A stretch of 64,000 nt of DNA from a virus (taxonomy: Duplodnaviria > Caudoviricetes), in the IMG/VR virus record IMGVR_UViG_2901146262_000001, positions 67,961 to 131,960 of that record, one strand, 5' to 3'. The notes beneath the pieces are model-generated. The model did not search any database, was not told the origin of the DNA, and saw nothing but the letters and a program-made list of their open reading frames with translations. Positions 1-54,923 of this stretch are shown here, one piece after another; position 1 is the stretch's first letter; each line of letters opens with the position of its first letter. The translations under genes and the position numbers were made by a program.

Positions 1-152
1 ATGCGAAAATGGGGTCGCTAGGAGTATCGCCAAGATACATGGAGCTGTATCTAGAGTCAGCAAATAAAATCAAGGATCAAGAAAATATCTACAATAAATC
101 TAATTAAAACAATTATTTTATAAAAAGGTAGGATCAAGGGAGGAGGAATGAA

Positions 153-830
153 TTGATAACAACGGAAATTAAAATGAGAAGGTGCAGAGGATGTGGTGTT
201 ATAAAGCCCTTAGAGTCAAACTACTATGGGCAATGGGTTTATCCTAAGACCAAAAAGAAGTATTTTAATTACCAGGGAAAATGTAAGAAGTGTATTTCAA
301 AACAAAACGTGAAATGGCAAAGAAAAAACATTGAAAAAACAAGAGATTTCAAAAGAGAGTGGGGAAGAAGGAATACCGACATTACTAGATATCACGCTAG
401 AAAACCACAAAGAAAAGAGTATATGAAGGTCTGGAGAAAAGAAAACCCTGATAAAATTAAGCAATATAATTTTTATAGGCAGATGAATAAGCATCATGAT
501 ATAACAGAGCGGGAGTGGAAAAGTTGCAAAGAACATTTTGATAACTCATGTGCTTATTGCGGTATAAGTGATGGGATGGCAAAAGAAAGATATGGAAACT
601 ACTTGCACAAAGATCATGCAGATCACGATGGTTCTAATAACTTAAACAATTGCATTCCAGCTTGTAAATCGTGCAACAGTAGCAAACATAACTTTGTGTT
701 AGAAGACTGGTACTTAGAGAGCGAATCATTTTCTGAAGGAAGGCTAAATAAGATTAACAACTGGCTCAGCAGTGAATATAAAAAGCACATGGAGGGGAAG
801 AGTGTGACAATTAAAGTATCTTTAGATTAA
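153..830 (+). CDS. HNH endonuclease with zinc-binding motifs
   Basis: CAYCG...HKDH...NCIPACKSCNSSK HNH signature; N-terminal CxxC pairs; RBS AGGAGG. Confidence 0.85.
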   Translation: MITTEIKMRRCRGCGVIKPLESNYYGQWVYPKTKKKYFNYQGKCKKCISKQNVKWQRKNIEKTRDFKREWGRRNTDITRYHARKPQRKEYMKVWRKENPDKIKQYNFYRQMNKHHDITEREWKSCKEHFDNSCAYCGISDGMAKERYGNYLHKDHADHDGSNNLNNCIPACKSCNSSKHNFVLEDWYLESESFSEGRLNKINNWLSSEYKKHMEGKSVTIKVSLD

Positions 831-1394
831 ATTGAATCTTTTAAAGGAGAATCTATAATGTATAATATATTAACAGTAAAACAATTGAAAGATATGTTGA
901 GATCTTATCCAGACGATTATAAAATTTTCGTTAATCCAAGAACAGAATTTATTGACGAGGTTTCTCCTAGTGATTTGAAAGTAGAAGATGTAAAACTTTA
1001 TAAAGATGAAGAGTTTGGAAATGTATATGGAATAGACAATAAAGACGGAGAAGGCAAGCCTTTTAAAGCATTGATTATTGAATTATGAAATAGGCAAATT
1101 AAAATGGAACTTTTAATATGAAGCTAACAGGAATGGGAGGTTGTGATTATGCATCAATATCAAGCTAACACAAAGAACAAAAAAATGTTTGAATTGATAG
1201 ATAAGCTGGATGAACACAAAGAGGAAATGGAATATTATGCAATCGGAAGAAGACCAAGCAACCGATTAGACAAGATTGAATCCAATGCAATAGAAATAGA
1301 GAAAATAGCAAGTGAAATCCAAAATCAAGTAAAATCTATGCGTAGAAAGTAAAACGAAATAAATTAGAGATTCTAAGTAAAAGGAGGCAATTGA

Positions 1395-1670
1395 ATGAAG
1401 AATAGACTGTTATTTACAACAATATTGATTTTAATATTTTTAATTGGATGTGGTCAAATTGGTAGTACAAAAGTAAGTGCGGGTTTACCCAGTGGATTTG
1501 AATTAGTAAGTGAAGATGAAATTAATCAGGGAGATGTGTACAAGGCTCGCGAAACAGCCACGGGATGTTATTACATCTTTGGTACTTCAGGTAGTGATTA
1601 TCGTACCACTGTTTCAATTGAGCAGATGACCATCGAAAAAGACGGGGCTAGAATACCTTATTGTGAATAG
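1395..1670 (+). CDS. Small lipoprotein (DUF6440-like)
   Basis: Signal peptide with lipobox LIGC; ETATGCYYI motif. Confidence 0.6.
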   Translation: MKNRLLFTTILILIFLIGCGQIGSTKVSAGLPSGFELVSEDEINQGDVYKARETATGCYYIFGTSGSDYRTTVSIEQMTIEKDGARIPYCE

Positions 1671-2337
1671 AGTTCCGACATAATAAAACATGCATTTCAA
1701 AGGAAGGGGAGAATATTAAAATGAGCAGAAGTAAAGAGACCATACTCGCTGAAATCGAGTATTTGCAAGGGGATGTTGATGAAAAAGAATTGGAGATTAA
1801 GTATTTAAAAGATAAAATAGATAAATTGGTGAATAAGTTGTCTTTAGGCTTGCATAATTAGTGAGTTAAAATAATCAATTTATAAGAATTGAGAGGGGAA
1901 TTGCAATGGATCAAGATAGAGCTAATCAAATTAACGATTGTTTCGTAGATATTGTTGGAAGAAGACCAAGAATGGATGAGAGAGACTTTATCAATGAGCA
2001 TCTACCAAGAGAAACTAAATTAGAAGCTGAGGAATGGGGATGGAGTGACACTGAAGTAGGGATCAAGGTTTTCAAATGGATCAAAGATAACAAGGAATTG
2101 GTTTTATCTAAATAAAAGAATCGTTTGATCGGAGGAGATTATTATGGAAAATAAAAATGACAAGCAGAGAAGCGAATATTTTATCAAGTATATTATCAAT
2201 GGTGAGAAATTTGATTTCAATGATTTTAAAACACAAGAAGATTTTGATAATTATAAGAAGGAGATAGAGGAGTTCAATAAAGAATCGGATACAGACAAAT
2301 AAAAGAGCGATTTGATTATAAAAAAAGGGGTGGTTAT

Positions 2338-2634
2338 GTGATTATGGGAGGAAGTAGAAACTGCGGGAAAACAACTGAACTAATAAAGATTTCCCACGAA
2401 GACCAAAAGTATATTGTATGTTCTGACAGAAGAAGAGTCGAACATGTCTCTCGTTTGGCTCGGCAGATGAATCTGGATATACCTTTCCCAATTGCTGTTG
2501 ATGAACTACCATTAAAAGGTGAATATATTAAAGACGTGTTAGTTGATGATATTGAAGATGTGTTTCTGTCTTTAGTTGGTGTACCGATCTATCAAGCAAC
2601 TTCAAGTATGGGATTGTGGAGGTTGGACAATTGA
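2338..2634 (+). CDS. Small P-loop-containing phage protein
   Basis: GSRNCGKTT Walker-A-like and VLVDD Walker-B-like motifs in 98 aa. Confidence 0.55.
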   Translation: MIMGGSRNCGKTTELIKISHEDQKYIVCSDRRRVEHVSRLARQMNLDIPFPIAVDELPLKGEYIKDVLVDDIEDVFLSLVGVPIYQATSSMGLWRLDN

Positions 2635-3540
2635 GAGTAAAAATAGGTGGCATCTATACAGTTAGCACAGACAAGACAAAGTTTCATCCAATGTTTTATG
2701 ACATTCTAGGAGAAAAAGTTGTTGTTACGGGTGAGTGGTACTTAGGAAAATATCCGGTTGAATTTATAGATAATCCTAATTTGAATACAGTTGCACAAAG
2801 AGTACGTGGAGATTTATTAATGGAGGTAAAATAGAATAGTAGATGAATTAGTCAAATAAGTATAATATTAGATGAATCAATCGAATAAAATTCTTGTTTT
2901 ATACAGGAGGTGATAATATGATTTATCTAATTGTTGATAAGAGAGACGAGCAAATTATTAAAATTAGTGATTATGAAAAATATAATAACAAACTCGAATC
3001 TCTAGGGTCGTATCCAGACTGCAACTATTTTCATATGATGGGCTTGAATGAAGCCGATTGTTCCGAAATGAGATATTTATTGATGGACAGTGGAGAAGCA
3101 ACGTATAAAGATTTTAAGTTTGTTGAAATTAATTAAATACTGGCAACGACCAATATAGGAGATGATTGATATGATTTTAAATGAGTCAGAAAAAGAATTA
3201 CTAAGAAAATTAATTGAAGACGAGAAACACAAATTAAGTAAAAGAGTGGATGCTTTTTGGCAAATGTCTCAAAGAGATGGCGATGACTCAATTTCTGAGC
3301 ACTCCTACGAAAAGAAAAAGAGGGAATCAAATAATACAATCAGTACTTGTAACGATATTTTATCTAAATTGGACTTATAATACTATTCAATAGAAGAGAG
3401 GTGATAGAATTAATCAATTTCATATAACAGAAACGTCAAAATATCGCTGGAGATTTAAAAATAAATTAAAGCATATTTTTTATTGACAATTAAGTGACTT
3501 TATAGTATAGTAATAAATAATAACAAAAGGGGATGGTTAA

Positions 3541-4020: not shown

Positions 4021-4825
4021 GTAACAATATAGTATGTACAATAAGTTAAAATACGGATTTTAATGAAAGGGAGATAAGAATGAGCAATAAAGAGGAAATG
4101 GTATCAGGAGGCAAAATAGAGCTACTCACAGACGTTTGCAGTCTTTTGAATGGTAAGCTTCAAATTATTAATAAAGTCATGCATGACGTAGTCGAAAATG
4201 AGTCAAATTTAAAAAGTGGTCAGAAAAATACAGATTTAATCGATTTGGCAAATGGAACTAACATTATTATCGAAAGTAGAAATGAAATTGACAAAAAGCT
4301 GAATGAATTAAAAGTTAATCATGGAATTAAATTGAGTTAATTGATATAACAGTCGGCTTTAAATATCGCTGACACATATAAGGAGGGAATTTTGATGGAA
4401 GATATATTTGATGATATTGAAAAGAGCTTTACATTATTTAGAGATGTAATCAAGCAGTTTCCAGACAGGCATGGACATAACATTCAAGAAGTCAGCAGAC
4501 TTGACCGTGAGCAGCAAGACTTGCTTCATTTGATAGAGTTTATTCCCATGAATGCTTATCAGGGCTGGAATACAACTCAAAGAATCAAGCACGTCAGACG
4601 GGACAGAAGAAAAGTAAAGGAAGAAACTGAATTACTGGAGCCAATTATTCCATTGCTAAAGAAGTATCGGCAACAATTAACTGAGATGGATAAAGTTATT
4701 GGCGAGATTAGAAAAGTAAAGAAACGCCAAGAGAATAGGCAGTATACATGTAAGGGCGATAAGTCACTACAAGAAAACTTCGACAAGGGTAAATTAGTCA
4801 CAATCTAAGATAAGGGGAGATCATC

Positions 4826-6466: not shown

Positions 6467-6537
6467 CTTTTTTTAAGTAAAATTAAGTAGTTTTATAGTA
6501 TAAATTCACCATTTTAAAGAAAGGGAGGATATAGATT

Positions 6538-7116: not shown

Positions 7117-8104
7117 TGAAGAACAGTTACATGACGTAATTGCAGGGTTCATAATAAAAGATTTCAGAGAGCAAGGAATTGCATTCGGAATTGATGATGA
7201 AGGATTTAATTTTGAGACCAGAGAAGATGCAGAGAAGTCTATTAAAAGAGCACAGGAAATGGGATATAATAAATGGTTGTTTAACGGAGAAGAGACTATA
7301 GATATTGTTGATAATAATTAAATTAAAATTTGTCTTTTAATGGAGGGAAGAGAAATGGATAAACGATTTGAAGATGGATGGAACGAAGGATTTAATGAAG
7401 GATTTTTTGAAGCAAGGCAGTTTTATAATAGTGATGAGCAAGTAAAAGAAAGTGATGGAAAACTGGAAGAGAAAGCAGCGAAAGCAGAATATCTTGCTAA
7501 GTTAGAACAAAAAAGAGCTAGTAACATATCTAAAAAGACTCAGCAATATAAGCAGACTTTAGAAGAGATAAAAACCTATATGGAAACCGATGCTGAAATG
7601 TTCTTGACGGATGAAGATAGATTTAAAGGTATACATAATGCATTGACAAAATACTATGAATTACTCAAGGAGGGTGACGCTGAATGATACGAACAAAGAA
7701 GCAAGATCAAGATGTGTCGATGATCAATCAAATTATTAAATTGGAAAAACAAAACCAACGCTACAAACAGGCTTTGGAGGAATTGGAAAAAATAAGATAC
7801 AGCGTAACGTGTACCCCAGAAGAGATTGGTCGAATTGTTGATAAAGCACTCAAGGAAGGTGAAGCTGAATGACTGATGAAAAACAATTTATAGACGATAC
7901 GGGATCTAAATTTAAATACGCATTAGCTTATTTATACTACGGATGGGACGAGGCTGAATATAGCAATGATCTAGATGAATTAGATGAAATTGCCAAGGAA
8001 ATGATTGCAGACAATAGTGGAAAGCCTCTAATAATCGTAAATGCAAATGATGAAATTGTAAGAGAATATACAGAAAGAAAAAGATAGTTGAAGGAGGAAT
8101 AGGG

Positions 8105-8533: not shown

Positions 8534-9853
8534 ATGAGTGAACAGATAGATTTAACTGGTGCTTCGGTAAATATTTTCCTAGAAATAGACGGAAAGATAT
8601 ATGCAGTCGCTTATGAAAAGGACAAATACGATGCCATATGCCACATTATTAAAAATGGTGCTGAACACATTATAAAAACTGATAAAACACAATTAGAATT
8701 GGTTGATTTTATAGGAATTGGAGGGTGATAGTAATGACTGAAAAAGTAAAAGTTACACAGAAACAATCCGATTGGTTAGACAAATATAAAAGCGACAAGG
8801 AAATAGATTATGCGATAGATATTCAACCACACAAAAAACGACCAGACAGTCCTATTATTGATTGGTCAGCATCAAAGGTAGCGAGAGCATTGTATGATGG
8901 TTATAAAGTAGAACCGAGGTTTGAAGTTGGGGATTGGGTTGTGCACGACTCATATAGCAAACCTGAGAAAGTAGTTAGGGTTTACCCTGATGTAGTAGAA
9001 ACAGAAACATTAAATGATAGACAAAAACGTTTTCGCCATGCCACTGAATCAGAAATCACAGAAGAAAAAGAGCGTAGATTCTTCGCTGAACATGGGAGAA
9101 GACCGTGGGAACTGAAGGAATTTGACGAATTGAGAAATAAAACGAATGACCATAGATACACGGTTACAGAAGAATTTGATCAATTAGAAGTTACTTTGGA
9201 AGACACTTATTTAGACAGAACGACTTTATTTAAAAGTAAAATTAAAAGTGACTTTTACGTTGTATGCTTCGTGGAATCAAGGTTGGACGTATAGCATGAA
9301 TAAATCGGAGATTGAACGAATTCATCTAATTAAAGAATTAGCCAAGCACGGACTAAAGGCAGAGACATGGGAGTTAAATTATGAGTTGAAAAGAAAGCTG
9401 TCTGCAGCCAGAACAATGGATTTAAAACCAATGGGAGGCAATTAGAATGAGTGAAATTGTAGAATCAAAAACGTATGAAATTGACGAGTTGGAAAAAGTG
9501 GAAGTTGAAACGCGTATTGACAACCCTAATGGCATTGAAACAACGACGATTATTATCTATTTAGAAGATGGATCATTCAGATGTTTCTCACACGAAAGAG
9601 AAATGTAATTCGCAGTGTGATTATTAAAACTTAAGCCAATGGGGTGGTAATCGGATACTGGCATGGCACAATGACCAATGGTATCAAATAATCGATGTCA
9701 ATATGGTTTCAAAATCATTTCTGTTATGCAACTATGATTGGTGGGCTTCTGATATATGGGTGAGATGGGATGATATTGAGGATTTTAAGAAGAATGATAT
9801 AGATTAAAACATGGAATTTATTGCATCGAACAAGATTACAGGAGGTAGTATAA

Positions 9854-10180: not shown

Positions 10181-13100
10181 TATGAATAGATTGTGTTAAA
10201 ACACAACTTTTATTGGAGGTGAATTCTATTCAGGAATATTGGAGTAACTGTTTAATAGAGGCGATGAGAAGATTTGTTTTAAGTCCTGTAAATATTAGAG
10301 TGCATATCACATGTAGGGTAAGAGATGCTCCCAAATATTTATTTAAAAACAAATCCTTTCCTCATATCTACTGGAGAGACAAAAGAGATGGCACTTGTTG
10401 GCATTTTACATATAAGCGAGGACAATCACTTCTAGGTCAGCTTATTCACAAAGGCAGGGTTGAAGAGTTTAGCTTACGTCGGAGAATTGGGTAGTCAATT
10501 AAAAATTAAACTTTAAAGTAAAAAGGAGAATGGAAATGGAAGCTTTGAGTGAACCGTTATTCGAGATCAATCAAGAAAGTAAATATTACAAAACAAAAAA
10601 AGAAATAAAAGACAGCCGACCGAAGATGCATAAAATATTAAAGGAAATAGCAAATGAATTTGAATTTAAGTTAGACGACTTTGCTCGTTATGGAGCAAGA
10701 GGCTTTGGATTTTATCAATATACAGATTCATACGAAAAGTATGAAGACAAATTAACCAAGAATGCTGACAGAAATGGAGTACATACGTTTAAGAAAGCTA
10801 CACAGGAGTATAAGGCTATTAGTCCGAGATTAGTAGAAATTGAGAGGATTGAAAACAAGGTAAACCCTTTTACTCTCCATGATATTTTTGGATTGAACAA
10901 TTTAAAAGCTTCTCAGTGGCTAGGTGATAGATTCTTTGTTGAAGTTAAGTCAGCGGAAGAAACAAAGAAGAAAGTAAGTGATCCTAAAAGGAGCATAGAA
11001 TTTGAGATTGAGCCTGTGAAAGAAATATCTTATAAAGAGTACTTACAGTTACTCATGGACAGAATTGATGATTGAAGAAGGAGGATGAGAGTGGACATTT
11101 TTACAAAGATTGTAAACGAATATTTACTTAAAGATGAAGAAAACAAAGAAGAATTGCTAGAATTCGCAAATGCTGTATCGGGTCAAATTATGAGTTCAGA
11201 AGGTGAAGATAATGAATAACGAACTGAAGCTAAAGCATATCAAAGAAGATGGTTCATTACGCACACCTTATGTAGTGTATCAAGGAGATAAGAAATTAGG
11301 AAGCTTCACAAATCGCATAGCAGCTAATAAGTTTATGAAAATGGTTGATGAGTTACGTAGATATGATGCGTTAGATTAAAAGTGAGCTTTTAACTGGGGA
11401 GGAATAAAAATGAAAGGTTGCATTTATGCAGTATATAACGAGAAGAATAGAGTAATTGGTTTATATGCCAATGAAACATGGGCGAAACGTAAGGCAGATC
11501 GATCAGATAGTTATCGAGTTGAAACATATGTTCATACGGAAAATAGAAAGATGATAGAAATGGCATAATTTATGACGAGAGATGATTAAATGAAGGCTAT
11601 ATTGCTTGAAGATTATAATTCAGGGATAAACGATTACTTCTACAAAAGAGGTCAGGATGTTGATATTACCGAATTAAAGAGCTTTGAAGATAGCTATGCT
11701 GTTTATCGCTATGGTGGATTGGACTGGATACCTAAAAGTATAGTAAAAATTATCGATTAGAGATATGCAGTAAGACGACAGAAACTAGAGGGGAAAGTTA
11801 AATGAAGGTAAAGATAAGATTTTTAATGGAGTTCCCGTATGACAATCAATTTTTTAAACCGCTTGATGAATTCGTATTAACAGTTGAAGATGCTACTGAG
11901 TTGGTAAATGCAGGTATTGCAGTTATAGATTATATATATACTGATTAAGAGGATAAATTTATCAAAAATGATGAGGTGATAACATGAGGTATGCATTTTA
12001 TGGCAGGGTGGAAGAAACACAGTACAATCCACATATGGCAGACTGCTTTGGCACTAAAATCCCCACATTGGGAAAGTGGAATAAACTAATGAAGTGGCAA
12101 GTTTTTTACAGTAAGGATAACGTACATATCGAAATCAATAGTGGAGCTAAGATTGATATAAGCGGTGAGAGTGTTTGCATTGAAAATGTGCAATATGATA
12201 TCGAAGATGATTCTTATAAGTGTTACACAGATAAGATTATATCAAGAAAAGATGGCAATATGACAAGACAACAAGCAGAGCAAAAAGCTGAAGAACTAAG
12301 AAATAGAGGTTTTTTCAAAAAGTTATTTGGCAGATAAAAGGATAGATTTATTAGGGAGTGATAGCTTTGAGTAGTAATATAGAACAGCAACTTCAAGATA
12401 TTGGTTACAAATTAGCTGAAGCTTGGAATTGTGGAGAGATTGAGAGACATGCTCAATTGATGCAAAGAGTTCGCAAATCAGGATTAAACGCAAAGGGCTT
12501 TGATTATGTATTGGATGTATATCAGAAAGCATTAAAATGAATATTTTATATAATTGCAAAGTGTTATTTAGACCAGAATTGATTATTCCAGACAGAGATA
12601 TTATTAAGAACATAAAGTTTAAGGAGGGTTTTAATAATGATGGTGAGTATATTAGGCGGAATAATCCTTATGTGTGCAATCATGACTGTAGGTATGTGGG
12701 TAGCTTATTTGCTGGCGCAACTACCAGATAATTTTGTTGATCATGAAGATTATGATAGAGATTAAACATGAACATGAGGTGATGAAATGGATATTAAAGA
12801 AATAATGGAAATGCAATTTAAAGTATTAGCTGTGACTGATAGCAAGCTTGAAGAAAATAATATGTCTGCAGACAAAGAATTTAAAGAAAGGGTATTTGAT
12901 AATATTCAATATCTTAGACGTATGGAGAAGTGGATAAAATAATTCATTTATGGGGTGAAAACATGCCAAAAATACACAAGGTCACACTTTATCTTACTGA
13001 CTTTGAAGAAATGGATAAAAGAAATATCGAGGTCGTCTTAGAACGTATGGCAGACAGGGAGGATATGAGTTTGCATATCGCAAAGCAAAATGAATCAGAA

Positions 13101-14282: not shown

Positions 14283-14376
14283 AAAAGTTTGTGAAAAGCA
14301 ACATACATAAATCGTTGATTTAATCGTCTTTTAATTTTCAATTCACAATCTTTTTCGAGATAAAATACTGGTTTTA
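14283..14376. repeat. ~95-bp inverted-repeat element, copy 1
   Basis: AAAAGTTTGTGAA-46 nt-TTCACAATCTTTT, followed 5 nt after the T-run by TAAAA-N6-TTTTA. Confidence 0.8.
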
Positions 14377-14663: not shown

Positions 14664-14693
14664 TATACTGCTATAAAGGAAGAGGTGGAGACA

Positions 14694-19620: not shown

Positions 19621-20777
19621 TTTACAGTAAAATGTAAGTTTGATTTGAACTATAATCTCAAATAAAAAAAGGAGATGGAATGAATGGAACTGAAAAGATA
19701 TACTCACCGTCACGAGATGGTCATCAGGGAGCAAGTTGGTCTATATGTAGAAAAGGTTGCGGATGGAATTTATTTGATAAAGAAAGACAGATTAGGATCT
19801 AAGAGTGGTCAGTTCATTAACTCTGATACATTATTCAGTAGAATGGGTCATTATAAGAAGATAGCAATAGACGATGAGTCAGGAATTACAGCAATCTTTG
19901 ATAGCTGGGAGTAAACTTTATTGAAAAAAGTATTTTTTTAATCAATATAGGGTAGCAATATAGTATAATGTTTGTTACACTAAAGGAGTTGGTTGGTTGG
20001 CCAAGAGAGATGAAGATAAAGTATTGTACGATTTATTGGCTTACTTTGATAAGAATTATGCAGATGCAAGCATTGAACAAAAGAACATGTATGTCAGAGG
20101 AGTTTCTGATGCACTGTCTTATGTGTACCACGGCAGAATGAAGCCACGCTAAACAATAAAAAGGGGGAATTGAGTTGGACATAAATAAAGGTGACATAAT
20201 CATTGTTAATATGGATCGTTTCGGTGGTGAAGGATTTAAAGAAATGGAAGTTTTTAATCCGACTGGAGATACTGACTATATTGAATATGTAGGAGAGCAT
20301 TTTCTCGCTAAGTCATCATCAGGTGAAACCCATGTGATCAAAGAAGGCGATTATAAGCTTAAGGAAGATGATATTATTGATATTGCTGATAGAGTTAGAG
20401 TTCCAAAGACAAATGGCACTCAAAAGGAATGTTATATCGTAGTTGAAGTTGATAGTACTAATCGGGGTATATGTATATTTGATGATTTTGGCCATAAGAT
20501 TTGGTATCAGAAGCATACCGTCACAAAAGTTGAAAATGATCCAAACAATGAACAGTTACTTGATATGGTAGCATCTCTGTCCTCTGAGTTGATTAAGGTA
20601 AAGAATATAGTGGTTGATTTGGTTAGTAAGCAGCAAGACGTTAACGACAGAATCATGTCTGATTTATTAAATTAACGGGACATCATTAAGGGTGGTGGTT
20701 ATTTTCTGAAGGTTATAGGGTGACATTATAGTATATAAAACAAAAATTAAACTTACAAGAAAAAAGGGAGAGATTTA

Positions 20778-30227: not shown

Positions 30228-33200
30228 GGAGGAAATCAGATGAAGTCATTTGATTGTACAGTAGAAAGAATAGATAAGTATATTGTGGAGTTTGACACAG
30301 ATGTAATCAATGAGGAGTGGATGGAAGAGTTTCGAGAGTTTATGTATGATTTTTACACCTTAGAGGAACACGCAGAACATATCGCACAACATAGAGCAAG
30401 ATTCGGTGGAAAGTTTATAGAAGGCTATGGATTTACTTTAGAAAACGGTAAAACACCATATTGGGCAGATGAAGATCGCGTAAATAAATCTATCAACATC
30501 AAGATTATCAGTGACGACAATGAGGCTTATGTCGATATTAAGTAAGGAGTTGAACTAATGAAGGAAGAAATCAAATTTCTAAAAGAATTGCAAGATGAAT
30601 TAAAATATCAAAGTGAATATGACTATGACTCACAGGCATCACCACGTTTCTGGACGATTATGGATTATAGAACCGTACCTACACATCCTGAATACGGAAT
30701 GGAGCGAATGTCCTATTATCACAATGATGGAGACCATACAGAGTTTGAGACAATAGCTGAGTTAAAAGAATATTTGACAGATTATTACTTAGATGATAGT
30801 AAAGATGACTTGCTGGCAAACTTAATAGCAGATCCTGATGCGAGTCTCGATGGATTATGGGAGTATGTAACATATTTCCTTAACGATGATGGGTATTTTG
30901 ATGAATGTCCAGTCAAGGAAGAGGAGTTTATCGCACCAAATACAATGTTTTTAACTAAGGAAGAAGCAAAGAATCATCTTAGAGTTAATCATTATCACTA
31001 TTCGTCCAAAGCACATACATACGCAATGACAGCTTGGAGAGCACCAAAGGTTGCTAAGCTACTAGATATATTAGAGACATTCGATTGGGATTCAGTAGGA
31101 GATGATACGAATGGTATGGGTTAGTATAGTTACTGTTGCGTATTTAATAGTTGGTCTCACTTATGCCCACAAGACAATAAAGGGATTAGAGAAGATAGTT
31201 GACAGCTACGAAGCAGGAGAGGAATTGTCCGAAAGCGAAAATGAACTATTAGATGAACTTAATGATGTCAATAAAATGATCGGAAATTCTGTTCTAATTA
31301 TATCTGTGGGTGCCACGTTTTTCTGGTTACCGATATTTATATTTGATCGATTTAGTAAATAATTTAAGGAGGAGAAGAGATGAAAATATTAACTGACTAT
31401 GACCAATTGGTTGGAAAAACAATAGCATTTGCACATATGGCTCAATTTGCAGATCAAATAACACTTGCTACGACAGATAATGAGGTGTTAATGGCAGATA
31501 TGGAGAGTGTAGACGAGTCTCTTCATGATAAGGAAATTACTGTATATAGTGAAGGAATGGTAATGAACAGGTTAAATTATGAACCCTATCTTAGAAAAAA
31601 GTTGAGTGAAATTGGTGTGTTTGATTTAGAAGCATATAAAGAAGAACGGCAAAAGCAAATGGAAGAAGCTAAACGAAAAAGAGAAGAACAGAAGAAGATA
31701 AATGAAATTAAAGAATTTGAGAGACTTAAGAAAAAATTTGAAGGTTGATTCAGATTCTGACAGAAGAGGAAGAAAGGGATGACAAGAATAGAAAATCAAT
31801 TAGACTATAACGAAATCGTACAATTTATGAAAGAATTTGAGGTCGATTTACTTAACAGATTTGGAGAGTTAATTATTGATGAACCTACAAGTACATATGC
31901 ATGTATCAACAATTGTAAAGATATTGATGAGGTAAAAACACGAGTGGTGTACAATCTTTGTCGTCCCATTGGTAAGGGTTTGGATGCTACGCCAGCAAAA
32001 AGGTTGTTGAACAGGTTAAATAAATATTTTGATACTGACTTAACTAAAGAAGATATGCGTTTAATGTATCAAGAACTATGCTATGTACGTAAGTTAGACG
32101 AATTTAAAAGTTTCATAAAACGAGGATTTCCAATGGATGAATTGATGATTAAACAGGAGGAAATGTAAATGAGTATGCAGCAAGGAGCAAGGACAGTGGA
32201 TGAATTGCTAGATGTAATTAAACCATTGGCTAAAGAAATGATTGAATTCAATGATTGTGGCAATGTTGTCAGAGAGATCGAAATCTATGTAGATAGAGAT
32301 GGAGACTTTGTTATTACAAGCGATTAAAAAGGGAGGTATGAGTATTGTATTTAGATAAGTTTCCGGTAACAACAAAAAGAGATGAATATAGAGTTATATT
32401 AAAAGAGAGAAGAGACTCACTTTTTGGCAAGTTCCTACATGCCGAAGTCTACCTGAGACTACCATCTCGCTTTACAAAGAAGTCAAAGTGGAAAAAGGTA
32501 TCAGGATATGCGCCACTGCATAAAGAAGGATGGTGGAAAGATGAGTTTTATCGTGGTAGATATGTAGAATTGGCAAAGGTAGCAGTTAAAGACTATGAGG
32601 ACTGGCTGATTGAACAGGAAGAGAAATCACGATCTCACGAACAAGGCATAAAAGATTGGAAGAGTTGGGATGGAGATATGCGTTAAAATCAAACATTTAT
32701 TGGAGGTGAGGATAGTGACATTTAAACTGCCAGAATCATATTACATAAGACAAAAAGAAATACATGACAGGAAGTATATCAATTATAAAGGTGATAAGAT
32801 TCATGTCAGTGAGTTTAGGGACAAATCAATTACTTCGGAGATGAAGAGTAGTATGAGAATGAATTCATATGCTCAAAGTGATTTACCTCCTAAACTAACA
32901 GATACAGCATTGATTGAAACTGTGGAATACTATCTAACTCAATGTTCAAGACCGAGAACACCAAGTGTGACATACGATGATGCGATTGTTCACAACTTGG
33001 TTCCAGAGTTAATAAATAGACTTAAGGAATATAAGGAGGTATGAATCGAATGAGTTTAGATGAATTAATTACACAAGGGCAAGATATTGACTCAAATCTA
33101 TATCATTGGTTCGGTAACATGGCTTGGTACGGATGGATAATGTTTGTTGTTTGCGTGATACTTTCCATCCTGATGGTTACTGTTTTCTTCTTTGATATGA

Positions 33201-34280: not shown

Positions 34281-34538
34281 TGGAGAACTTTCTATATTAT
34301 CTAGCAGAATCTAAATATAGCATGTATTTTTATCTATTCAAACAATCAGCACGAACTTCAGGAGAATGCTTCTCACGTATCAAGGTGGATTCAAAATATA
34401 AGCAATTATTGGACACTATTAATAGATTACCGAATAAAGAGCAGCAAAGATTAAGGGAGATTGAAAGACAATATTTTGAAGATGCACCCTATGTCAATCT
34501 TAAGTAAAATAATACTTTTAACAGATTGACAAATACTA

Positions 34539-38561: not shown

Positions 38562-38999
38562 ATGACAAAAACACCTACGCAGAAACAATATGAAGACGCG
38601 CTGGAAGTCGTACAACAGTATGAGAATCGTCAAAAGGATTTGGCTAAATTGAATAACGACTTAGGTTACTGTTTGCAGTAGTTTAATCAGGTTAAATTTG
38701 ATGTAAGTGAAGATAAGAAAGAAGTGACTTTTACTGGTGTAACTAAGGCTGGAAAATTGAAATTAACTAAATCGATTGCTAGATCGGGAGATAAATTCGA
38801 ACCCGTCATTGGCAAGTTGATCTGTGTTAAGAAGGCACTAAATGAGGATGTAGAATATATTGATAAGTTTGTTGAGCGAGTTGAGAACACTGTTTGGGTA
38901 TGCAATTCACATAACACACTCCCAACAGAAGTTCAGACCGATGATATTTGGAATAATATGATTAAAAAAAGTAGAAGAAGAGGTCTGGTTATAGATTAA
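38562..38999 (+). pseudogene. Hypothetical gene with in-frame TAG at 38679-38681 (pseudogene or read-through)
   Basis: Strong RBS and ATG 38562; frame stays open after TAG into the 38724-38999 ORF. Confidence 0.7.
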
Positions 39000-39301
39000 A
39001 AGACATCATTTATTGAAAATAGGGTGATTGAAAATTGATAGTAATTAAAAACACTGATAACTATGTAGAAAAGGAAGCAAATATGTTTGGAGATTGCGAG
39101 GAGACGCTAAAGTTAATGTCAGAAGGTCGTATTTTTAATATCGAATATCACAAAGAAGATGGAAGTTTTCACATCTATGAAAAGTGTGATGAATACTTTG
39201 GTGAAAAGTTAACTTTAAAAATGTGTATTGATTTATCTGAGCTGTTTTCAAAGATTGCAGAGAAAATAGAATAAAAATGAAGATAAATGGAGGTATGTCT
39301 A

Positions 39302-40162: not shown

Positions 40163-40242
40163 TTGAGTAATATTATAATACATAGCAATAAAAAGTATGT
40201 TTTATATGTAAATCAATAAGTCTAATAAGGAGGAGAGCAAAT

Positions 40243-40405: not shown

Positions 40406-43400
40406 ATGGAGGGGAAGCAAGTGTACTCACTTGGTAAAAACCACGAAAAAATCTGGAAGATATGCGTGGAAGGATTGTCCGCCAATCCAAATGACGAACT
40501 GTTGCTTAATGTATCACAAGTTTTAAGAGACTACGACAAGAAATATGGTATTGGTTATAGAATTACACAAGGAACTATTGATGCAAGCAAAATAAATATA
40601 ATTTAATGGAGGAATCATAAATGAATAATGCAATGATTGCTTATCTTAAAGAATTGAATAAGAGTGTCACTAGATCGGATGAAGTTGTAACGCGATTATA
40701 CTACGGAGACAGTGAGTACGTAGAAGACTTCTCTTATTTTGCAAATGAAGATTATATGTCTAAGGGTTTACTTGAAGCAATCAAAAACAAGACAACATTA
40801 ACAGATAAACAGAGTATGGAATTGCAATATTTTGTTCAGGAAGATGTGATCAGCTAAGTTAAAAGTTCAATTTTAATGGAGAGGAGGCGAACAAACAATG
40901 AAAAATGACATAGTAAGTGCCGTCAACAGATACAAGCGCCAACTAGATAAAGAGTCTAATATTTTGATTATGGGTATGGATAATCCAGAGCTAATACTAA
41001 CTGATGTATTCTTAAGTGAAAGCAAACATCAACCTTATTATAATCACGCAACAAGAGCTATAGATAAAGCTGGAATATCCCACCATCAACTACAAGAAGA
41101 GTTGTTTAATAGAGTAAAGGAGTACTTTACGCAATTTGATCCCGAGGTGGATTTGGAACTGGCTTATAAAAATTCATATCCAGCTAGTGTAACGGTTGAA
41201 TATAGAGGTTATGGACTACTTTATTTTAGCTTTTATTATCACACATATAGGGATATACGAAGATCAAATCAGAATACATATGTTCCTCAAGAGATTGAAA
41301 AAATCCAGTCTCAAATATTAGATAAAGAAGAGAAAATTGAAGAATATAGGCAATTTGAGCAAAACTTTCTGAGAATGTTACACCCTAAAAATTACCGATC
41401 AAATGGTATGAAATTGGCTTGGCTAATAACAAGAGACGCATTTTCAATCTTAAAGCTCGGAAGAAAGAAAGTTAAATCAAACATTGAAAAATACATTAAT
41501 GATCGCAACAATGAAATAGCAAGATTAAAAAATGATATACAAAGAAGCTATAAAGGTCTTGCAGAGTACAACAAGGTTAAGGTTGGTCTAGACGAAAAGT
41601 TCGAGAAATGGTCAGGAAAATTTACTGAATTAGGGTATGAAAAGGAAGAATTATAATAAAATTTAACTTTATTGAAAAGGAGATGAATGATTTGGGGATA
41701 GATACTATGACCTTAGCAAAGACTCTCTTCTCGTGGAATTTGATTGAAGAGGTTAGCAGGGAAGATGACAGATTGAAGGTAAGATGTACTGATGTGGATT
41801 TAGCTGATCCAGATGATGATTATACTGGAATGATTAGATATTTCATTGACAACGATTATATTGAAGCAACAGAGGACAGTTCTATTTATGTAATAACCGA
41901 ATGGTTTTTTAACATAGCCAAAGAATACACCGAAAGAACAAAGTAGAAATGAAACTTCGAATTTATACGAAAAGGATGTAGGAAACTTATGAAGGATCTT
42001 ATGACGGTATTGCTACGCTGGTTTATCCCAATTACTTTGTACTACATAGCTTTTGGGTTGATGGACAATACTGGCTGGGAGTCGTTGCTAATTGGATTGT
42101 TATTTGCAGGCGGTGTGTTGATTAACGTTTTAAGCCACACCAATAAGAATTAAAGTTTCGATTTAAAATGAAAGGAGATCGACGAAAATGACCAAACAAA
42201 CATTTTACACAAGTGAATCAGGAAGAGAGCGCTTTTGTAATGGCGAGGTGTTCCCAGCTTCTGATAACAAAAGGGGCGAATTTACAATTGAGTTTACTGT
42301 TTCGCCAGACGAGGTTGTCGATAGAATGGGAAGTCTCGTAATGATTGATACAGGAAGTCAGGCGGATTTATAGAATGGGGGATAATAGATGGTTATAGCA
42401 GCATGGATACTATTAATTTTATGTATACTGGCGGTTTTAGGTAGCGATCTAAAAACTAACTTTGGTGGAATCCTTGTATTCTTTGGATTGTTAGCACTGA
42501 TATTTCTATCAGCCACAATTATATGGGAAGACTTGCATTCAGTAAAAGAGTTGTGGCAATTGTTCTAGGAGGTGGAGAATATTAAACTGTCAGGCTACAT
42601 ATCTAAATTGCAAAAGATCATAGAGGAGCATGGAGACATAGATTGTGTAGAGTGGATAGATTATGATTATTGGGACGATGCGTCTGAAGGTTGGTTTGAG
42701 CCATACAGCGATGATCCAATAGAGTTTGTGTCTGACTTTGCTTATTCGTACACTGACACGAATGGAAATAAACAATACACGAACGTCAATTCAAGTGGTT
42801 ATATAGATGGACAGCGAGAGACTGTATTTGTAGTAAAAGAACTTTGAATAAATTGATGATTTTATAGAATTGGGTAATTAATATTATAACAATCAAAAAG
42901 GGGGAAATAAAAATGGATGATAACAAAATTGAGCAACTGCAATTGAAAGTTAAAGGGCTTGAGGGTGAAATGGATAACTTATATACATGGATAGACAAGA
43001 CAACAAGTGAGTTAGTGATATTGACTGAAACAGTAGGACAAAAAGCAGATAAATTAGATGTGGGTAGCATTTTTTCAGAAATAGATAAACAACAAGCAAA
43101 AAAGAGGGTTAAAATGACTGAAATAGAAAAAACAAATATATTAAAACAACAAAACATAAACAAAATTGCAGAAGGTGTTTTGGGATATACATGGGATGAA
43201 GATAAAGAAATATGGAAACATTCTACAGGATGGACTAATTTCTTTAATCCATTTGATGCGAACGATGATTGTGAAAAGGTTAAAGAAAAGCTCAGAGAAG
43301 ACGGCTGGCTTATTACCATTCAAGATAAAGTTGATTATTTAGGTGACTATATTTCATCGGGAAAGTTATTTCATAAAAGCTTTAAGACTACAGACACTCA

Positions 43401-45037
43401 TTATACGGAGGCTTTAAATGATCGTTACACAGTATGTTATTTAGCACTAAAAGCATATAAAGTTAAATAATATTATATTAAATATATAAAAGGAGTGAAG
43501 CCATGTATAAGACAAAGACTTTTCCTTACAGCATAAATTATCAACAATGGCTTGAACATATTCAATGTGTCACACCTATTGAAATTGCATCGGTAGTAAA
43601 GTTTGATGACGGAGTATTAGTTACATATAAACAATTAGACTAAAAGCGCTCTTTTAATTAGAAGCGGAGGTGAAAAAATGGAAAAAATGATGTTTCACTG
43701 GGAAGATAACAATGGAAATACGGGCAAATTCAAAGTCTCATCTTTTTCGGTTGAAGATTGCATTAAGACTGCCAATACAGAAGTAGGCAGTAAGGCAGAA
43801 ATAATAGATTATTATTCTATATAAAACATAGTTTATAAAGGAGTCAGTAAAATAATGCCAGAAAAAGAAAATAAGTCACCTTTATTAGAGTTATATGGCG
43901 ATAATGCGTTTGATTTAGCGCTTGAAGAAATCAACAAGTTAAAAAGAAATTCAAACATACCGTTTGACACTGAATACGTAACATTAGGCATATCCTTTAT
44001 AGCACTGAAGGCTAGTGAGATATTTGAAGAAAAGAAATCACGTTGCAGTTTAACAAGTTTAGTAAGTGAAAGCTTTGGCGAAGCAGCAATTTGTACATAC
44101 AATTAAGTTAAAAACCAGAATTTATTGGAAGGAGTGAAGACAATCAGACTATCGTCAGAAAAAAGAGTACTAGAGTATAAATATGATAATGAGACAGAAA
44201 TGGAGTTTCACGAACATGCAATGAAGCAGGAAGGCTGGATGGTTACGTCTAGAAATAATATGTTTAGGGGAAAATATTGGCGACAATATTCACAAGAAGT
44301 GCGACAAGGAGCATTTTTGTAGTTGGATACAAGTATAAGGAGTGAATGAATGTCCTATAGACGACCTATGATGGGTGAGTATGTAAATGTTGTAGACAAT
44401 GAAACTATGCACTCAGTTGGCAAGGGTAAGCTAATTCATTTTACAAGAGAACAGATAGTAATTGTGCATCTGAACAGAGGTTATAAGATGATGTTCGATG
44501 CAAGGGTGAATCATTTTGAAGGATATGAGCCACCTGTCATGTTAATTAAGAAGAAGGAAAATTAGTAAAAAAGGAGGAGATACAATGATAGAGACGATGA
44601 GTTTAACAGGTGGACTTGATATATATTCATTCGGAGAGAGGTATCAGTCAGACAAATCACCCCAAGGAAGAAAGGTGCGCTTTCGAAATAAAGGTGGATG
44701 GGAATCGGATACAGAGTATGCTCACAAGTATCTCATCAATGAGGGTGACATATTAACAGTTGAAGAGATTTATGTAGGTAGAAGTAGCTCTGAAGCAGAA
44801 TTTAAAGAGCATCCGAATATTACATTTAATACAGTGATGTTTGAAGATGTATCTGAAATGCCATTAGGATTTATAAGTGCAAAAATGGATACCACAAATT
44901 ATCGAAAAGGAAAGGTCGAAAATCAGATACAGTTCCAAGATACAACTATTGAAGCCGATGATTTTGGAAGAGTTCTTATCAACGGTAAGCAAGTCCGAGA
45001 TGTGGATGACGCACAGGAAATGTTTAATGAGGAATAG
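40406..45037 (+). other. Cluster of small hypothetical phage genes
   Basis: Co-oriented ORFs with RBS, many separated by TAAAA-N6-TTTTA variants. Confidence 0.7.
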
Positions 45038-46208: not shown

Positions 46209-46303
46209 AAAAAGATTGTGAAATACAACACGTCTAAAACACCCATACATCAACATTTTAATTTTAGATTCACAATCTTTTTTCAGATAAAAGTCGAGTT
46301 TTA
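46209..46303. repeat. ~95-bp inverted-repeat element, copy 2
   Basis: Perfect 14-bp inverted repeat AAAAAGATTGTGAA-46 nt-TTCACAATCTTTTT, 5 nt, then TAAAAGTCGAGTTTTA. Confidence 0.85.
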
Positions 46304-47218: not shown

Positions 47219-47454
47219 TAGTTAGGGATTTGATTGAAGAATTATTGCAGTTTGACATGGAGTCGGATATTGAAATTGAAGTTAAGTCAAATAGTGATGA
47301 AGAAACGTCTGATATTCGTGTTGAGAAGTTTGTTTATGCAGATGAGGTTAAGTTAATTGCCGATTTAGATAGGTATGAATTAGTGGATAAAGATAGATAT
47401 GAAGAGATGGAAGATGGTCTCGAAGAGTTGTATGAAATAAAATCTATACTTTAA
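47215..47454 (+). CDS. Hypothetical acidic protein
   Basis: RBS, coupled start. Confidence 0.6.
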   Translation: MIVRDLIEELLQFDMESDIEIEVKSNSDEETSDIRVEKFVYADEVKLIADLDRYELVDKDRYEEMEDGLEELYEIKSIL

Positions 47455-53077: not shown

Positions 53078-53084
53078 CATCATG

Positions 53085-53118
53085 TAGCATGGACTAAATA
53101 AAGTTCATGCTATTTTTA
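53085..53118 (+). terminator. Intrinsic terminator
   Basis: TAGCATGGACT-loop-AGTTCATGCTA followed by TTTTT. Confidence 0.85.
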
Positions 53119-53127
53119 TAAATAAGC

Positions 53128-53156
53128 TTGACATTTTTATTGGGTGACATTATAAT
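53128..53156 (+). promoter_or_regulatory. SigA-type promoter with operator-like motif
   Basis: TTGACA-17-TATAAT containing ATTGGGTGACATTATAAT. Confidence 0.85.
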
Positions 53157-53198
53157 ATAGTTATAGTCAAAGTTAATTAATGAAGGGAAGAATGAAAG

Positions 53199-54923
53199 AT
53201 GAGAAAAGAAGATCTATTAAGGAAGAATTATAAGCAAGTTGCGTACAAGGGTAGGGGTGAAGATGTAGATACAGTTTATAAAAGATTCGATAATGGCAAT
53301 ATGAGGATCGTACAATACGACAAAGAGATTATAGGGGGAGGATTTAGAGAAGCTTTCCTAAATAAAGATCAGGTCAGCCAGATTTTTATTTAGCATCCAA
53401 TAAAATTACAGTTTTATCTTAAAACCCTCTTCAAGTAGGGTAGTAAAATGGAGTAAACCAAAGAAAATGGGAGGACTAATAATGAGCAATGTAGAATCAT
53501 CAATATACCCAAATAAATTCATTGACTTTTCAGAAGGGTATGAGGTAAGCAATGACAGAGTGAATGAAACTATCAATAGAATCATATCAGATATGACCGT
53601 AGACGAGAAAGTGAATACGATGACGGTGTCAACTGGCAATACAAAAGTCAATGTAACTAGGGATAGGGATATGGACACTTTGATTGTTGAGGTATATAAA
53701 AATTACCAAAGAAAAACTATTCGATTAGACGAATTAAAGGAGGAGGAGGGGTAATAATGAAGGTGTTTAAAATGAATGACATTGATTATGTGGCAGCAAA
53801 GACATCAGAAGAAGCTAAGAAGTTTTATGGAGAATTATGCGACTATACTTATGAAGAAATTCAAGAAGACTTTGAGGGAGAAGCTAGTCTGCAAGAAAAA
53901 ATGAACGTTCTTCTAAGCGAATTATCTGAGGACGATACAGTTAGAGTAGGAGACATACACATGAAACATAGTATGCTTTGGGTTCGCAAGTCATTCGAAT
54001 GGTTTTTAGAAAATGATAGTCATAATAACGAGCCATTTGTAATTTGTTCTATGGAGTAGATTACAAACAATATTTTACTAAAAAAGAGGTGAAACAAATG
54101 GAAGGAATCTTAAAGAAAATTACATATGACAATACTGAATTTGACCTTCATGTAACAGTAAACGACTGTAATCCACTTCTAGTAGATGCTGTCATAAGCA
54201 ATGATGAATACAACTACAATTTCTCAGGAAGCTTCAGTACTGTCAAGGGTTTAAAACAATACATTGTAAAGAATTTAGATGGTCATTTTAATCATCACAA
54301 GCATAGTCGTCAGTATAACGAGTTAATAGATTGGGATGGAAATCTGGATGGTGTTTTATACGATTAATACTATATTTTAGCTAAAATTAAGTAACATTAT
54401 AATACAAGGGGTGTAGTGATGAAAGTAAAAATTAAAGGAAGTATTTATTTAGAGAATGATAGTTTTCAGTATATATTAAAAAAGTATAGTGGCAAGACAG
54501 ATAAGAAAGGTGTTCCAACCTATGAGATACTCGGCTATTTCAGCTCTCTCGAAGCCAGTATTATGAAGATATTCCGTATGAAAATTAGTGAAAGTAAAGC
54601 GAAAGATCTAAAGGAGTTACGCAAAGACATTCAGATTGCTAATGATGAGATCAGAGAGTTGTTAGGTGCAGAATATGAAAAGAAACGACCTTGATGAGCA
54701 AAGACTGAGATTAAAAATAGGAACGATTCTGGTAACAATTGCATGTTTTGTAGCATTAGCTGCGGTTACATTTGGAATTATTTTCTTTAACTTTTGGCTA
54801 TTATCATCTGTCTTTAGCTTAGGCACTGACTACATAAAAGTATTTTGGGTGGCATTATGTTCATTTATTATAGAAGTATTATTTATATTAGGATTTTATA
54901 TTACAAGCAAAAGAGAGGATTGA
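53199..54923 (+). other. Six small hypothetical genes (the last has two TM helices)
   Basis: Co-oriented ORFs, most with RBS. Confidence 0.7.

Follow-up and report, generated by a model that had tools for sequence, protein, structure and literature searches.

What does a short palindrome do when it recurs, almost unchanged, between one small phage gene and the next? This question is raised by a 64,000-nt stretch of DNA from a virus of the Caudoviricetes (IMG/VR record IMGVR_UViG_2901146262_000001; the whole stretch is hereafter called the window), in which the sequence TAAAA-N6-TTTTA marks many junctions between accessory genes. An initial annotation proposed that these sites bound mobile cassettes, each consisting of a ribosome-binding site (RBS), an open reading frame (ORF) and a site, and that the system is integron-like. 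The first part of this proposal is partly supported by our results, since breakpoints between related phages, two clean indels and joints in metagenome contigs all place the motif at boundaries of exchangeable accessory modules; the integron-like part is unsupported. The symmetry data are explained no less well by the alternative offered at the time, in which a dimeric DNA-binding protein occupies the site. We favor, with about even confidence, a dyad DNA site at accessory-gene junctions that is recognized by a protein and doubles as a preferred crossover point.

Enrichment, Spacing, and Placement of the Palindrome

The window carries 19 perfect copies of TAAAA-N6-TTTTA, compared to 0.79 expected (standard deviation 0.87, largest 3) from 100 shuffles that preserve dinucleotide composition. 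These include all 17 copies reported initially, each at its reported position, plus two more at positions 22828 and 60290. The 21 one-mismatch copies named at the same time are likewise all present, and a tolerance of at most one mismatch yields 50 copies, against 16.9 expected (largest 25). Because this many near-copies are expected by chance, some of the one-mismatch copies, chiefly those in coding DNA, may be chance occurrences.

The distance between the two arms is strictly constrained. When the spacing was scanned from 0 to 20 bp, 19 copies were found at 6 bp and 0 to 2 at every other value, and reversed or direct arrangements of the arms occur only 0 to 4 times in the window. The spacer itself is different in each of the 19 perfect copies, as had been claimed. 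No other 5-mer inverted repeat in the window is enriched at any spacing, the runner-up reaching 4 copies. Enrichment is thus limited to the TAAAA arms, and recognition is therefore specific to sequence rather than to a generic hairpin.

Copies are concentrated in intergenic DNA, where 16 are present in 10.2 kb (0.22 expected; largest 2 in 300 shuffles), compared to 2 in 54 kb of coding DNA (0.52 expected); this division relies on rough gene calls and leaves uncounted one copy that crosses a segment border. When near-copies are included, 43 of the 50 are intergenic, mostly 12 to 33 nt 5′ of a start codon, which agrees with the original placement of the site between a gene end and the next RBS. 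Most immediately precede a Shine–Dalgarno site, and in long intergenic regions the motif is usually found beside the downstream RBS. The TAA of the motif serves as the upstream stop codon in 13 copies, so this earlier observation largely holds; two of its examples (9805 and 38997) went unscored, their short upstream ORFs having been missed by the gene caller. A copy precedes 37 of the 127 called genes, including 31 of the 82 that encode fewer than 120 amino acids and 6 of the 45 larger ones. Core junctions (prfA-prmC, helicase-primase, recJ-nrd, and thyA-dfrA) carry no copy, again as reported. Enrichment, fixed spacing and intergenic bias of the motif are thereby confirmed.

Distribution among Phages and in the Host

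Protein matches to phage SPbeta indicate that the element is an SPbeta-like prophage of about 135 kb and that the window is therefore, as read from its sequence, the early/replication arm. In the 4.36-Mb host genome, the only cluster of motifs is the plus-strand arm of this prophage, with 22 perfect copies. Copies in the minus-strand arm are scattered and mostly coding, and the host genome beyond the prophage has no excess at the 6-bp spacing (48 copies versus 36 to 62 at other spacings), which led us to reject a host transcription-factor regulon. Two copies in the late arm (G000:C1:430618 and, in SPbeta, NC_001884:50182) contain the Shine–Dalgarno sequence of the downstream minus-strand gene within the 6-bp spacer, and one perfect copy lies over the stop codon of a YomM-like gene (C1:428551).

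Relatives were sought by several routes. Megablast of two window stretches against a phage collection gave no match, a helicase-based search of genome contigs and viral contigs found no related locus, and a DNA polymerase search in 60 relatives returned only host DnaE. A family-wide polymerase search recovered prophages G177 and G162 of another genus, whose polymerases are 66 to 77% identical. Both carry the motif at the same fixed spacing (31 copies versus 0 to 2 at other spacings in G177; 13 versus 0 to 3 in G162), as does SPbeta (34 versus 0 to 3). Many of the SPbeta copies follow terminators, precede promoters or lie at convergent gene ends, far from any RBS.

Brevibacillus phage Sundance has no copy of the motif and no comparable palindrome of any kind. 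Likewise, 80 unrelated Firmicute prophage loci (1.38 Mb) exhibit no excess, with 24 copies at 6 bp versus 97 summed over six other spacings (mean 16). Two of these control loci depart from the rest when 6 bp is compared with the six other spacings: L045, a 9.4-kb Bacillaceae contig from a metagenome-assembled genome (5 versus 1), and L077 from Chengkuizengella marina (3 versus 0). Both may belong to further motif-bearing phages.

Breakpoints between Related Phages

When the early arm was compared with G177 and G162 by blastn, matches were confined to gene interiors apart from a single 96-nt non-coding element. Because the DNA of these prophages is too diverged for mapping breakpoints, we turned to the SPbeta group, which carries the same motif, and compared positions 66 to 116.5 kb of SPbeta with the matching regions of Goe13, phi3T, SPbetaL8, and SPbetaL4. 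In the first three comparisons with SPbeta, many blocks of homology start or end exactly at motif copies (Table 1).

All-against-all alignment of the five genomes yielded 214 unique breakpoints. A copy with no more than one mismatch is found within 12 bp of 86 of them, compared to 6.0 expected under uniform placement. Among intergenic breakpoints, the corresponding figures are 62 of 118 and 12.1 expected. Viewed by junction, a breakpoint is present at 65 of 91 junctions that carry the motif versus 55 of 294 that do not. Since the same events recur across genomes, these figures overstate independence.

The initial annotation had suggested looking for breakpoints within the spacer. The association with the motif is borne out, but the breakpoints are found at the edges of the 16-bp core rather than at a single fixed point. 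Alignment starts cluster at core positions −2 to 0 (39 of 68), and alignment ends cluster at +16/+17 (20 of 60) and at +4, where the left arm ends (7 of 60). When cores are distinguished by their spacers, 17 have alignment starts at the left edge, 11 have alignment ends at the right edge, and 6 have both; among the genomes, these six vary in the module on their left and also in that on their right. A core with its spacer can thus be inherited with either neighbor, as would be expected of crossovers in the arms.

Replaced segments (81 in all) have motifs on both sides in 20 cases, on one side in 36 and on neither side in 25. Two clean indels were found. The first is an 801-bp segment of SPbeta (87599..88400) that is empty in SPbetaL4, and the second is a 1805-bp segment of SPbetaL4 (L032:26880..28685) that is empty in SPbeta and SPbetaL8. 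This second insert carries the annotated anti-defense gene Gad1, whose product counters Gabija, together with three small ORFs. In both cases, the insert is flanked by two motif copies, and the empty site has a single copy, with the spacer of the right-hand one. In several other simple indels, only the right side bears a motif. Translocated modules are nearly absent from the five regions, which gave a single off-diagonal match.

The lineage of the window itself was examined using contigs from three metagenome DNA runs that are near-identical to parts of window positions 25001–35000, aligned on 20001–40000. Among the matches listed, there are 29 unique joint ends, and 5 of these are no more than 12 nt from a motif, compared to 0.75 expected (binomial P about 8e-4). 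The remaining joints listed are at Shine–Dalgarno sites or inside genes.

Symmetry Points to a Probable Double-Stranded DNA Site

Sequence logos were made from the perfect copies of the prophage's own early arm (22, of which 19 are in the window), G177 (31), G162 (13), and SPbeta (34). The arms are symmetric out to about 11 bp, giving the 11-6-11 dyad T-Y-W-R-R-W-TAAAA-N6-TTTTA-W-Y-Y-W-R-A. In SPbeta, for example, T occupies position −6 in 25 of 34 copies and is mirrored by A at +21 in 32 of 34. The spacer is largely free, with A avoided at its first base and T at its last.

This symmetry does not appear to reflect base pairing in RNA. Across 100 sites, none of 8 mirrored flank pairs exhibits covariation beyond column composition, and the outer pair of the spacer is depleted in Watson–Crick combinations (21 observed versus 32.9 expected). 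As 28-nt RNAs, 17 of the 19 perfect copies in the window (the two within ORFs were omitted) had folding energies of 0 to −4.8 kcal/mol; two of the 17 remain unfolded, and two adopt a structure other than the motif hairpin. The motif therefore has no stable stem with compensatory changes of the kind that characterizes a terminator or structured RNA. A generic hairpin, an RNase III-type site, and a terminator were all rejected on the grounds that only TAAAA arms are enriched, covariation is absent, folds are marginal, and the region has no excess of terminators.

An element that is sequence-specific, dyad-symmetric, and unselected for pairing is therefore best explained as a double-stranded DNA site of a symmetric dimer. 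From these sequence properties, we read the motif as a site at which a symmetric protein would act on DNA rather than on RNA.

Transcriptional Context

The window contains a family of near-identical sigmaA early promoters, each composed of TTGACA, a conserved 17-nt spacer, TATAAT, and then ACATATA(G)AGTCAAAATAAAG. The downstream sequence ATACATAT in these promoters shares a reverse-complement 8-mer with the core of SPBRE, the operator of the SPbeta repressor MrpR (YopR). On this likeness, ATACATAT may be the operator of an MrpR-like repressor encoded just upstream of the window.

Terminator-like sites are not in excess over shuffles in window positions 1–60,000 (5, 4, and 7 found versus 5.8, 6.3, and 7.6 expected), and the 60 kb of early arm scanned seem to form a few very long operons. 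Only about eight conserved sigmaA promoters are present in the window and terminators are not enriched, which places most motif copies within long operons. A few are near promoters: those at 3467 and 47438 adjoin a −35 element, that at 34505 lies 19 nt before one, and that at 40189 follows a −10 element. No −35 or −10 sequence is conserved around the motif, and the early promoters are a separate element.

A conserved non-coding element of about 95 nt occurs twice in the window and once in G177, each time with a motif copy at its end. It contains a distant inverted repeat, AAAAG(T/A)TTGTGAAA ... TTCACAATCT.

A Proposed Role and the Search for a Binding Protein

We propose that the motif is the 16-bp core of a double-stranded site of roughly 28 bp (11-6-11), which would be recognized by a symmetric, phage-encoded DNA-binding protein. 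The site punctuates the early arm of SPbeta-like phages at junctions between small accessory genes. Its primary job might be that of a multi-copy binding site, resembling an operator, roadblock, or silencer, in long operons that have almost no terminators. The arms common to all copies, together with probable occupancy by protein, would then make the site a preferred crossover for deleting, inserting, or replacing accessory modules, one of which holds the annotated Gad1. Recombination would be a consequence of the site.

The window has no match to the tyrosine recombinase family PF00589, consistent with the initial annotation, and the search of the remaining prophage that it recommended revealed three genes of the tyrosine-recombinase fold (YomM-like, YopP-like, and MrpR-like). 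These are 0.6 to 42 kb upstream of the window, and none heads the motif array. The YopP-like protein retains R, K, HxxR, H, and Y in an alignment with XerA/XerC-like structures. In SPbeta-like phages, yopP is a core gene that is active in lysogeny (Kohm et al. 2023, PMC10516654; this and the other published reports below are cited from excerpts). Among DNA-binding proteins, conservation across the four motif-bearing phages was found only for the YopP-like, MrpR-like, and HU-like ones. Our leading candidate for the binding protein, on geometry and because yopP is reported as a lysogeny-active core gene, is one of the tyrosine-recombinase fold such as the YopP homologue, although this is less likely than not.

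Several other candidates were rejected. The YomM-like recombinase is 64% identical to its SPbeta counterpart, retrieved no close homologue when used as the query against G177 and G162, and has Lys in place of the second catalytic Arg. The HU-like YonN protein is 74% identical to host HU and hence appears to be a generic paralogue. The YoqL-like HNH endonuclease (window 153–830) was not found in G162 or Sundance. Finally, published peaks of MrpR from chromatin affinity purification sequencing (ChAP-seq) are located only at SPBRE (PMC10516654).

A number of observations weigh against the proposed role. First, no binding protein was identified among the candidates considered: the YopP-like, MrpR-like, and HU-like proteins all have relatives in motif-free Sundance, YopP of SPbeta and that of the window prophage are only 24% identical though the motif is identical, and the ten ChAP-seq peaks of MrpR in SPbeta are all SPBRE (PMC10516654). 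Second, about 60% of breakpoints fall away from motifs, in part at Shine–Dalgarno sites or within genes, and the counts across the five genomes are not independent. Third, the junctions that bear the motif are the accessory ones, which are variable anyway. Lastly, nearness to Shine–Dalgarno sites would also suit a role at the RNA level or as a promoter.

Alternative Explanations

The main rival to a protein-bound site with secondary recombination is a dedicated recombinase and cassette system; the other explanations considered below are less likely. In this scheme, the copies are core-type sites of a phage tyrosine recombinase, with the YopP homologue as the candidate enzyme, that moves RBS-ORF-site cassettes in the manner of an integron. 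We regard this as unlikely. The inverted arms and 6-bp spacer do match the geometry of tyrosine-recombinase core sites (arms of about 11 to 13 bp, spacer of 6 to 8 bp), and 11-6-11 is precisely the layout of Xer/dif-type sites. Crossovers map to the arms flanking the spacer, two indels are of a clean cassette type, and among the three genes of this fold in the prophage the YopP-like one has, from its alignment, an apparently complete catalytic set. In addition, yopP is the lysogeny-active core gene noted above, and MrpR exemplifies this fold binding a repeated palindrome in SPbeta (PMC10516654).

The properties of the spacers argue against such an enzyme. Identical spacers in partner sites are not found: all 19 perfect copies in the window differ, and so do the copies flanking Gad1. 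Classical strand exchange by a tyrosine recombinase would therefore be blocked. Moreover, dozens of sites in direct orientation would endanger the genome, several simple indels have the motif on the right side only, and comparison of the five Spbetavirus regions revealed almost no translocated modules. Sundance lacks the motif yet has a YopP-like gene, YopP is weakly conserved (24%) despite the invariance of the site, and no attI-like acceptor site was found.

Another possibility, which we judge improbable, is that the motif is a linker that functions without protein. Modules bearing the motif would join more readily through recombination between short homologies, which would maintain it, and selection for intact genes would do the rest. 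Deletion between short direct repeats indeed needs no site-specific enzyme, and breakpoints also fall at other short shared sequences such as Shine–Dalgarno sites. However, per copy, the motif is struck far more often than these equally short and far more numerous sites, and a fixed, free gap of 6 bp between invariant 5-bp arms with symmetric, degenerate flanks is characteristic of a site bound by a protein dimer rather than of joining driven by homology.

Somewhat less probable again is an RNA-level element, in which UAAAA-N6-UUUUA upstream of Shine–Dalgarno sites in polycistronic early mRNAs would permit translational control or processing via a protein or RNase. Most window copies end 12 to 33 nt before a start codon, the motif usually stays beside the downstream RBS even in long intergenic regions, and the two late-arm copies with a Shine–Dalgarno sequence in the spacer would also fit. 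Against this, symmetry that extends 6 nt past the arms without covariation in pairing would be meaningless for single-stranded RNA, hairpins are marginal or absent, and many SPbeta copies are far from any RBS.

Least probable of all is a promoter for a phage-modified or phage-encoded RNA polymerase, acting as a middle-class promoter before each gene (compare T4 late promoters): the motif immediately precedes the RBS, about half of the copies have a TAAAAT that looks like a −10 hexamer, and the RNA polymerase YonO tracks the motif in being present in motif-bearing phages and not found in Sundance, but the site is dyad-symmetric unlike promoters, some copies are at gene ends with no downstream gene, and YonO initiates the late operon at one site upstream of yonK, early genes being YonO-independent (PMC5467207).

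Comparison with Known Systems

Modular exchange of genes among phages is usually ascribed to illegitimate recombination followed by selection, and to our knowledge dedicated boundary sequences are documented mainly as the PeSLs (promoter-early stem-loops) of T4-type phages. PeSLs resemble the present motif in being short, regulatory-looking sequences repeated between small, non-essential ORFs in plastic regions (PMC2839356). They also bound insertions, deletions, and replacements of close relatives, and shuffling by recombination between copies has been proposed (Arbiol et al. 2010, PMC2839356). The boundaries of indels and replacements between close relatives studied here coincide with the palindrome in the same way. 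The two elements are built differently, as a PeSL combines a sigma70 promoter with a terminator stem-loop, whereas our motif is a 16- to 28-bp dyad without −35 and −10 elements or a stable hairpin. Mini-circles have been demonstrated for PeSLs. PeSLs of T4-type phages are reportedly the subject of a further study by Comeau et al. in 2014 (PMC4122927).

Stoperators of Cluster A mycobacteriophages such as L5 offer a plausible model for a multi-copy intergenic site in terminator-poor operons. More than 20 such repressor-type sites are present in short intergenic spaces, alongside operators at promoters (McGinnis et al. 2022, PMC9283540). The palindrome similarly has many copies in short intergenic spaces within operons, with few promoters or terminators nearby. 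Stoperators differ in being 13-bp, asymmetric, bound by a monomer, and functional in one orientation only (PMC9283540), whereas the motif is palindromic. They are bound by the immunity repressor, whereas peaks of the SPbeta master repressor MrpR are confined to SPBRE (PMC10516654). Stoperators are not described as recombination joints in the excerpted text of McGinnis et al. 2022 (PMC9283540).

SPBRE is also a repeated palindrome of the same phage family and is bound by a protein of the tyrosine-recombinase fold (Kohm et al. 2023, PMC10516654). It differs from the motif in being a 15-bp sequence with about ten copies located at promoters (PMC10516654). Its sequence is unrelated to TAAAA-N6-TTTTA: we found its core, TATACATA/ATATGTAT, in nine of ten listed SPbeta promoter regions. 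SPBRE is not conserved in the prophage of the window, whereas the motif is.

Integron cassettes are promoterless ORFs with an imperfectly palindromic attC site, and their arrays vary by ORF-plus-site units. The attC sites are 57 to 141 bp long, are recognized as folded single strands, and have a single crossover point. The separation of ORFs by palindromes is shared with the system described here; as to gain or loss of ORF-plus-site units, the two clean indels fit, whereas other simple indels carry a motif on one side only. The prophage differs in that it lacks IntI, attI, and Pc, and its motif is 16 to 28 bp long, is unfolded, and has apparent crossovers at both arms. The evidence from window and prophage thus revealed no integron integrase, no attI, and no attC-like structure; the core is 16 bp, the arms are at most 11 bp, and breakpoints fall at both edges. 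Xer/dif-type sites have 11-bp inverted arms, a 6-bp central region, and AT-rich inner arm positions, and so share the geometry of the motif. The difference is that each replicon has just one dif site, whose central region is defined, whereas there are 30 to 70 motif sites with unrelated spacers.

The motif is structurally different from PeSLs, stoperators, and SPBRE/MrpR, which are the closest known systems. A description of it was not found in a literature search, which did not cover the 1999 SPbeta genome paper (this may mention the motif).

Genomic Setting

The prophage was delimited from maps of composition and strand. The long ORFs of the window are all on the plus strand, and GC and AT skew are strong. 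Pfam matches in the window comprise RF1, PrmC, an AAA_24 ATPase, a DnaB-like helicase, primase, RecJ, NrdA, and a DnaE-type polymerase, as well as an HNH endonuclease, a 3D-domain protein, an RNA ligase, a DnaJ-domain protein, and a RecU-like protein. The polymerase shares 57% identity with its Sundance counterpart and only 24% with SPbeta YorL. In comparison with SPbeta, the late-control proteins are 67% (YonN-like), 64% (YomM-like), and 57% (YonO-like) identical, and the final ORF of the window resembles the serine integrase SprA (26%). The ancestry of the whole prophage (G000:C1 about 404–540 kb) thus appears mosaic, with late-control genes that are SPbeta-like and a DNA polymerase that is Sundance-like. 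The prophage also encodes its own peptide chain release factor 1 (PCRF and RF-1 domains) and a PrmC-type methyltransferase (window 14634–16623). Stop codons among the called window genes are TAA (69), TAG (34), and TGA (23).

Table 1. Motif copies and other features. Positions are those of the window unless another sequence is named; the motif copies are undirected with respect to strand.
Feature	Position	Remark
Window	G000:C1:470956-534955	64,000 nt
Prophage minus-strand arm	about G000:C1 404-450 kb	
Prophage plus-strand arm	about G000:C1 452-540 kb	
YomM-like gene	G000:C1:428564-429577	tyrosine-recombinase fold
YopP-like gene	G000:C1:451146-452204	tyrosine-recombinase fold
MrpR-like gene	G000:C1:469375-470373	Pfam MrpR_N_CB; ends about 600 bp before window
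Perfect copy	105..120	32 nt 5′ of HNH-endonuclease gene start
Perfect copy	1100..1115	intergenic
Perfect copy	2886..2901	intergenic, start codon 16 nt on
Perfect copy	4047..4062	intergenic
Perfect copy	7324..7339	intergenic
Perfect copy	10197..10212	intergenic
Perfect copy	11377..11392	TAA is upstream stop codon
Perfect copy	12533..12548	intergenic (rough gene calls)
Perfect copy	14361..14376	terminates conserved ~95-nt element
Perfect copy	22828..22843	within first codons of 3D-domain protein ORF; metagenome contigs diverge 13 nt before
Perfect copy	25739..25754	TAA is upstream stop codon
Perfect copy	27948..27963	metagenome joint 8 nt before (27940)
Perfect copy	34505..34520	TAA is stop codon; 19 nt upstream of −35 of conserved early promoter
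Perfect copy	40189..40204	just 3′ of promoter-like TATAAT
Perfect copy	40860..40875	intergenic
Perfect copy	43641..43656	TAA is upstream stop codon
Perfect copy	46288..46303	terminates second copy of ~95-nt element
Perfect copy	53401..53416	intergenic
Perfect copy	60290..60305	within first codons of small ORF; may be chance
One-mismatch copy	828..843	TAA is stop codon
One-mismatch copy	1684..1699	intergenic
One-mismatch copy	1867..1882	intergenic
One-mismatch copy	2113..2128	TAA is stop codon
One-mismatch copy	2300..2315	TAA is stop codon
One-mismatch copy	3467..3482	adjoins −35 of promoter-like site
One-mismatch copy	6501..6516	intergenic
One-mismatch copy	9805..9820	intergenic
One-mismatch copy	10500..10515	intergenic
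One-mismatch copy	12335..12350	TAA is stop codon
One-mismatch copy	12935..12950	intergenic (rough gene calls)
One-mismatch copy	19628..19643	intergenic
One-mismatch copy	19925..19940	intergenic
One-mismatch copy	25171..25186	TAA is stop codon
One-mismatch copy	26123..26138	intergenic
One-mismatch copy	27023..27038	intergenic
One-mismatch copy	27290..27305	metagenome joint exactly on last base (27305)
One-mismatch copy	27487..27502	TAA is stop codon
One-mismatch copy	27760..27775	metagenome contigs diverge 9 nt before and 9 nt after
One-mismatch copy	32684..32699	joints 32682 and 32701-32706 (at least 3 contigs, runs of two studies)
One-mismatch copy	38997..39012	joint at 39015; gene 39035-39274 missing from relative
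One-mismatch copy	42849..42864	intergenic
One-mismatch copy	43822..43837	TAA is stop codon
One-mismatch copy	44109..44124	intergenic
One-mismatch copy	47438..47453	overlaps gene 3′ end; adjoins −35 of conserved early promoter
One-mismatch copy	54062..54077	intergenic
Early promoters	5105-5133, 16953-16981, 17497-17525, 34539-34567, 47456-47484, 53128-53156, 56859-56887	
Early promoter variants	near 3483 and 40147	
~95-nt element	14283-14376	
~95-nt element	about 46210-46303	
~95-nt element, G177	L018:9783-9877	
Homology block edges at motifs (SPbeta coordinates)	73669, 76171, 86073/86091, 86899, 87603, 88416, 92392, 92749, 95128, 99496, 115037	
Own-lineage joints at motifs, among matches listed	27305, 27940, 32682, 32701-32706, 39015	at least 3 contigs at 32701-32706

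Implications for Phage Gene Exchange

The motif is a simpler element than the known boundary sequences, with a 16-bp core, invariant arms, and a free spacer, and it marks about 40% of the mosaic breakpoints of the SPbeta group. Its conservation extends from phages of Bacillus subtilis to prophages in another bacterial family. It bounds modules made up of small early genes, the seat of anti-defense and host-takeover functions. Since related phages have exchanged genes right at the motif, it may serve as a joint for gene trading among these viruses. Because it is present in SPbeta of B. subtilis 168, its binder, a role in silencing or insulating early genes, and its role in recombination are all directly testable. 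It is also conceivable, if improbable, that a catalytically intact YopP-type recombinase or another dedicated enzyme acts on the 30 to 70 11-6-11 sites, despite their heterologous spacers, to excise, capture, and replace accessory genes, including anti-defense genes such as Gad1. If true, this phage-borne cassette exchange would give enzymatic form to the “linker” mechanism long postulated for modular phage evolution.

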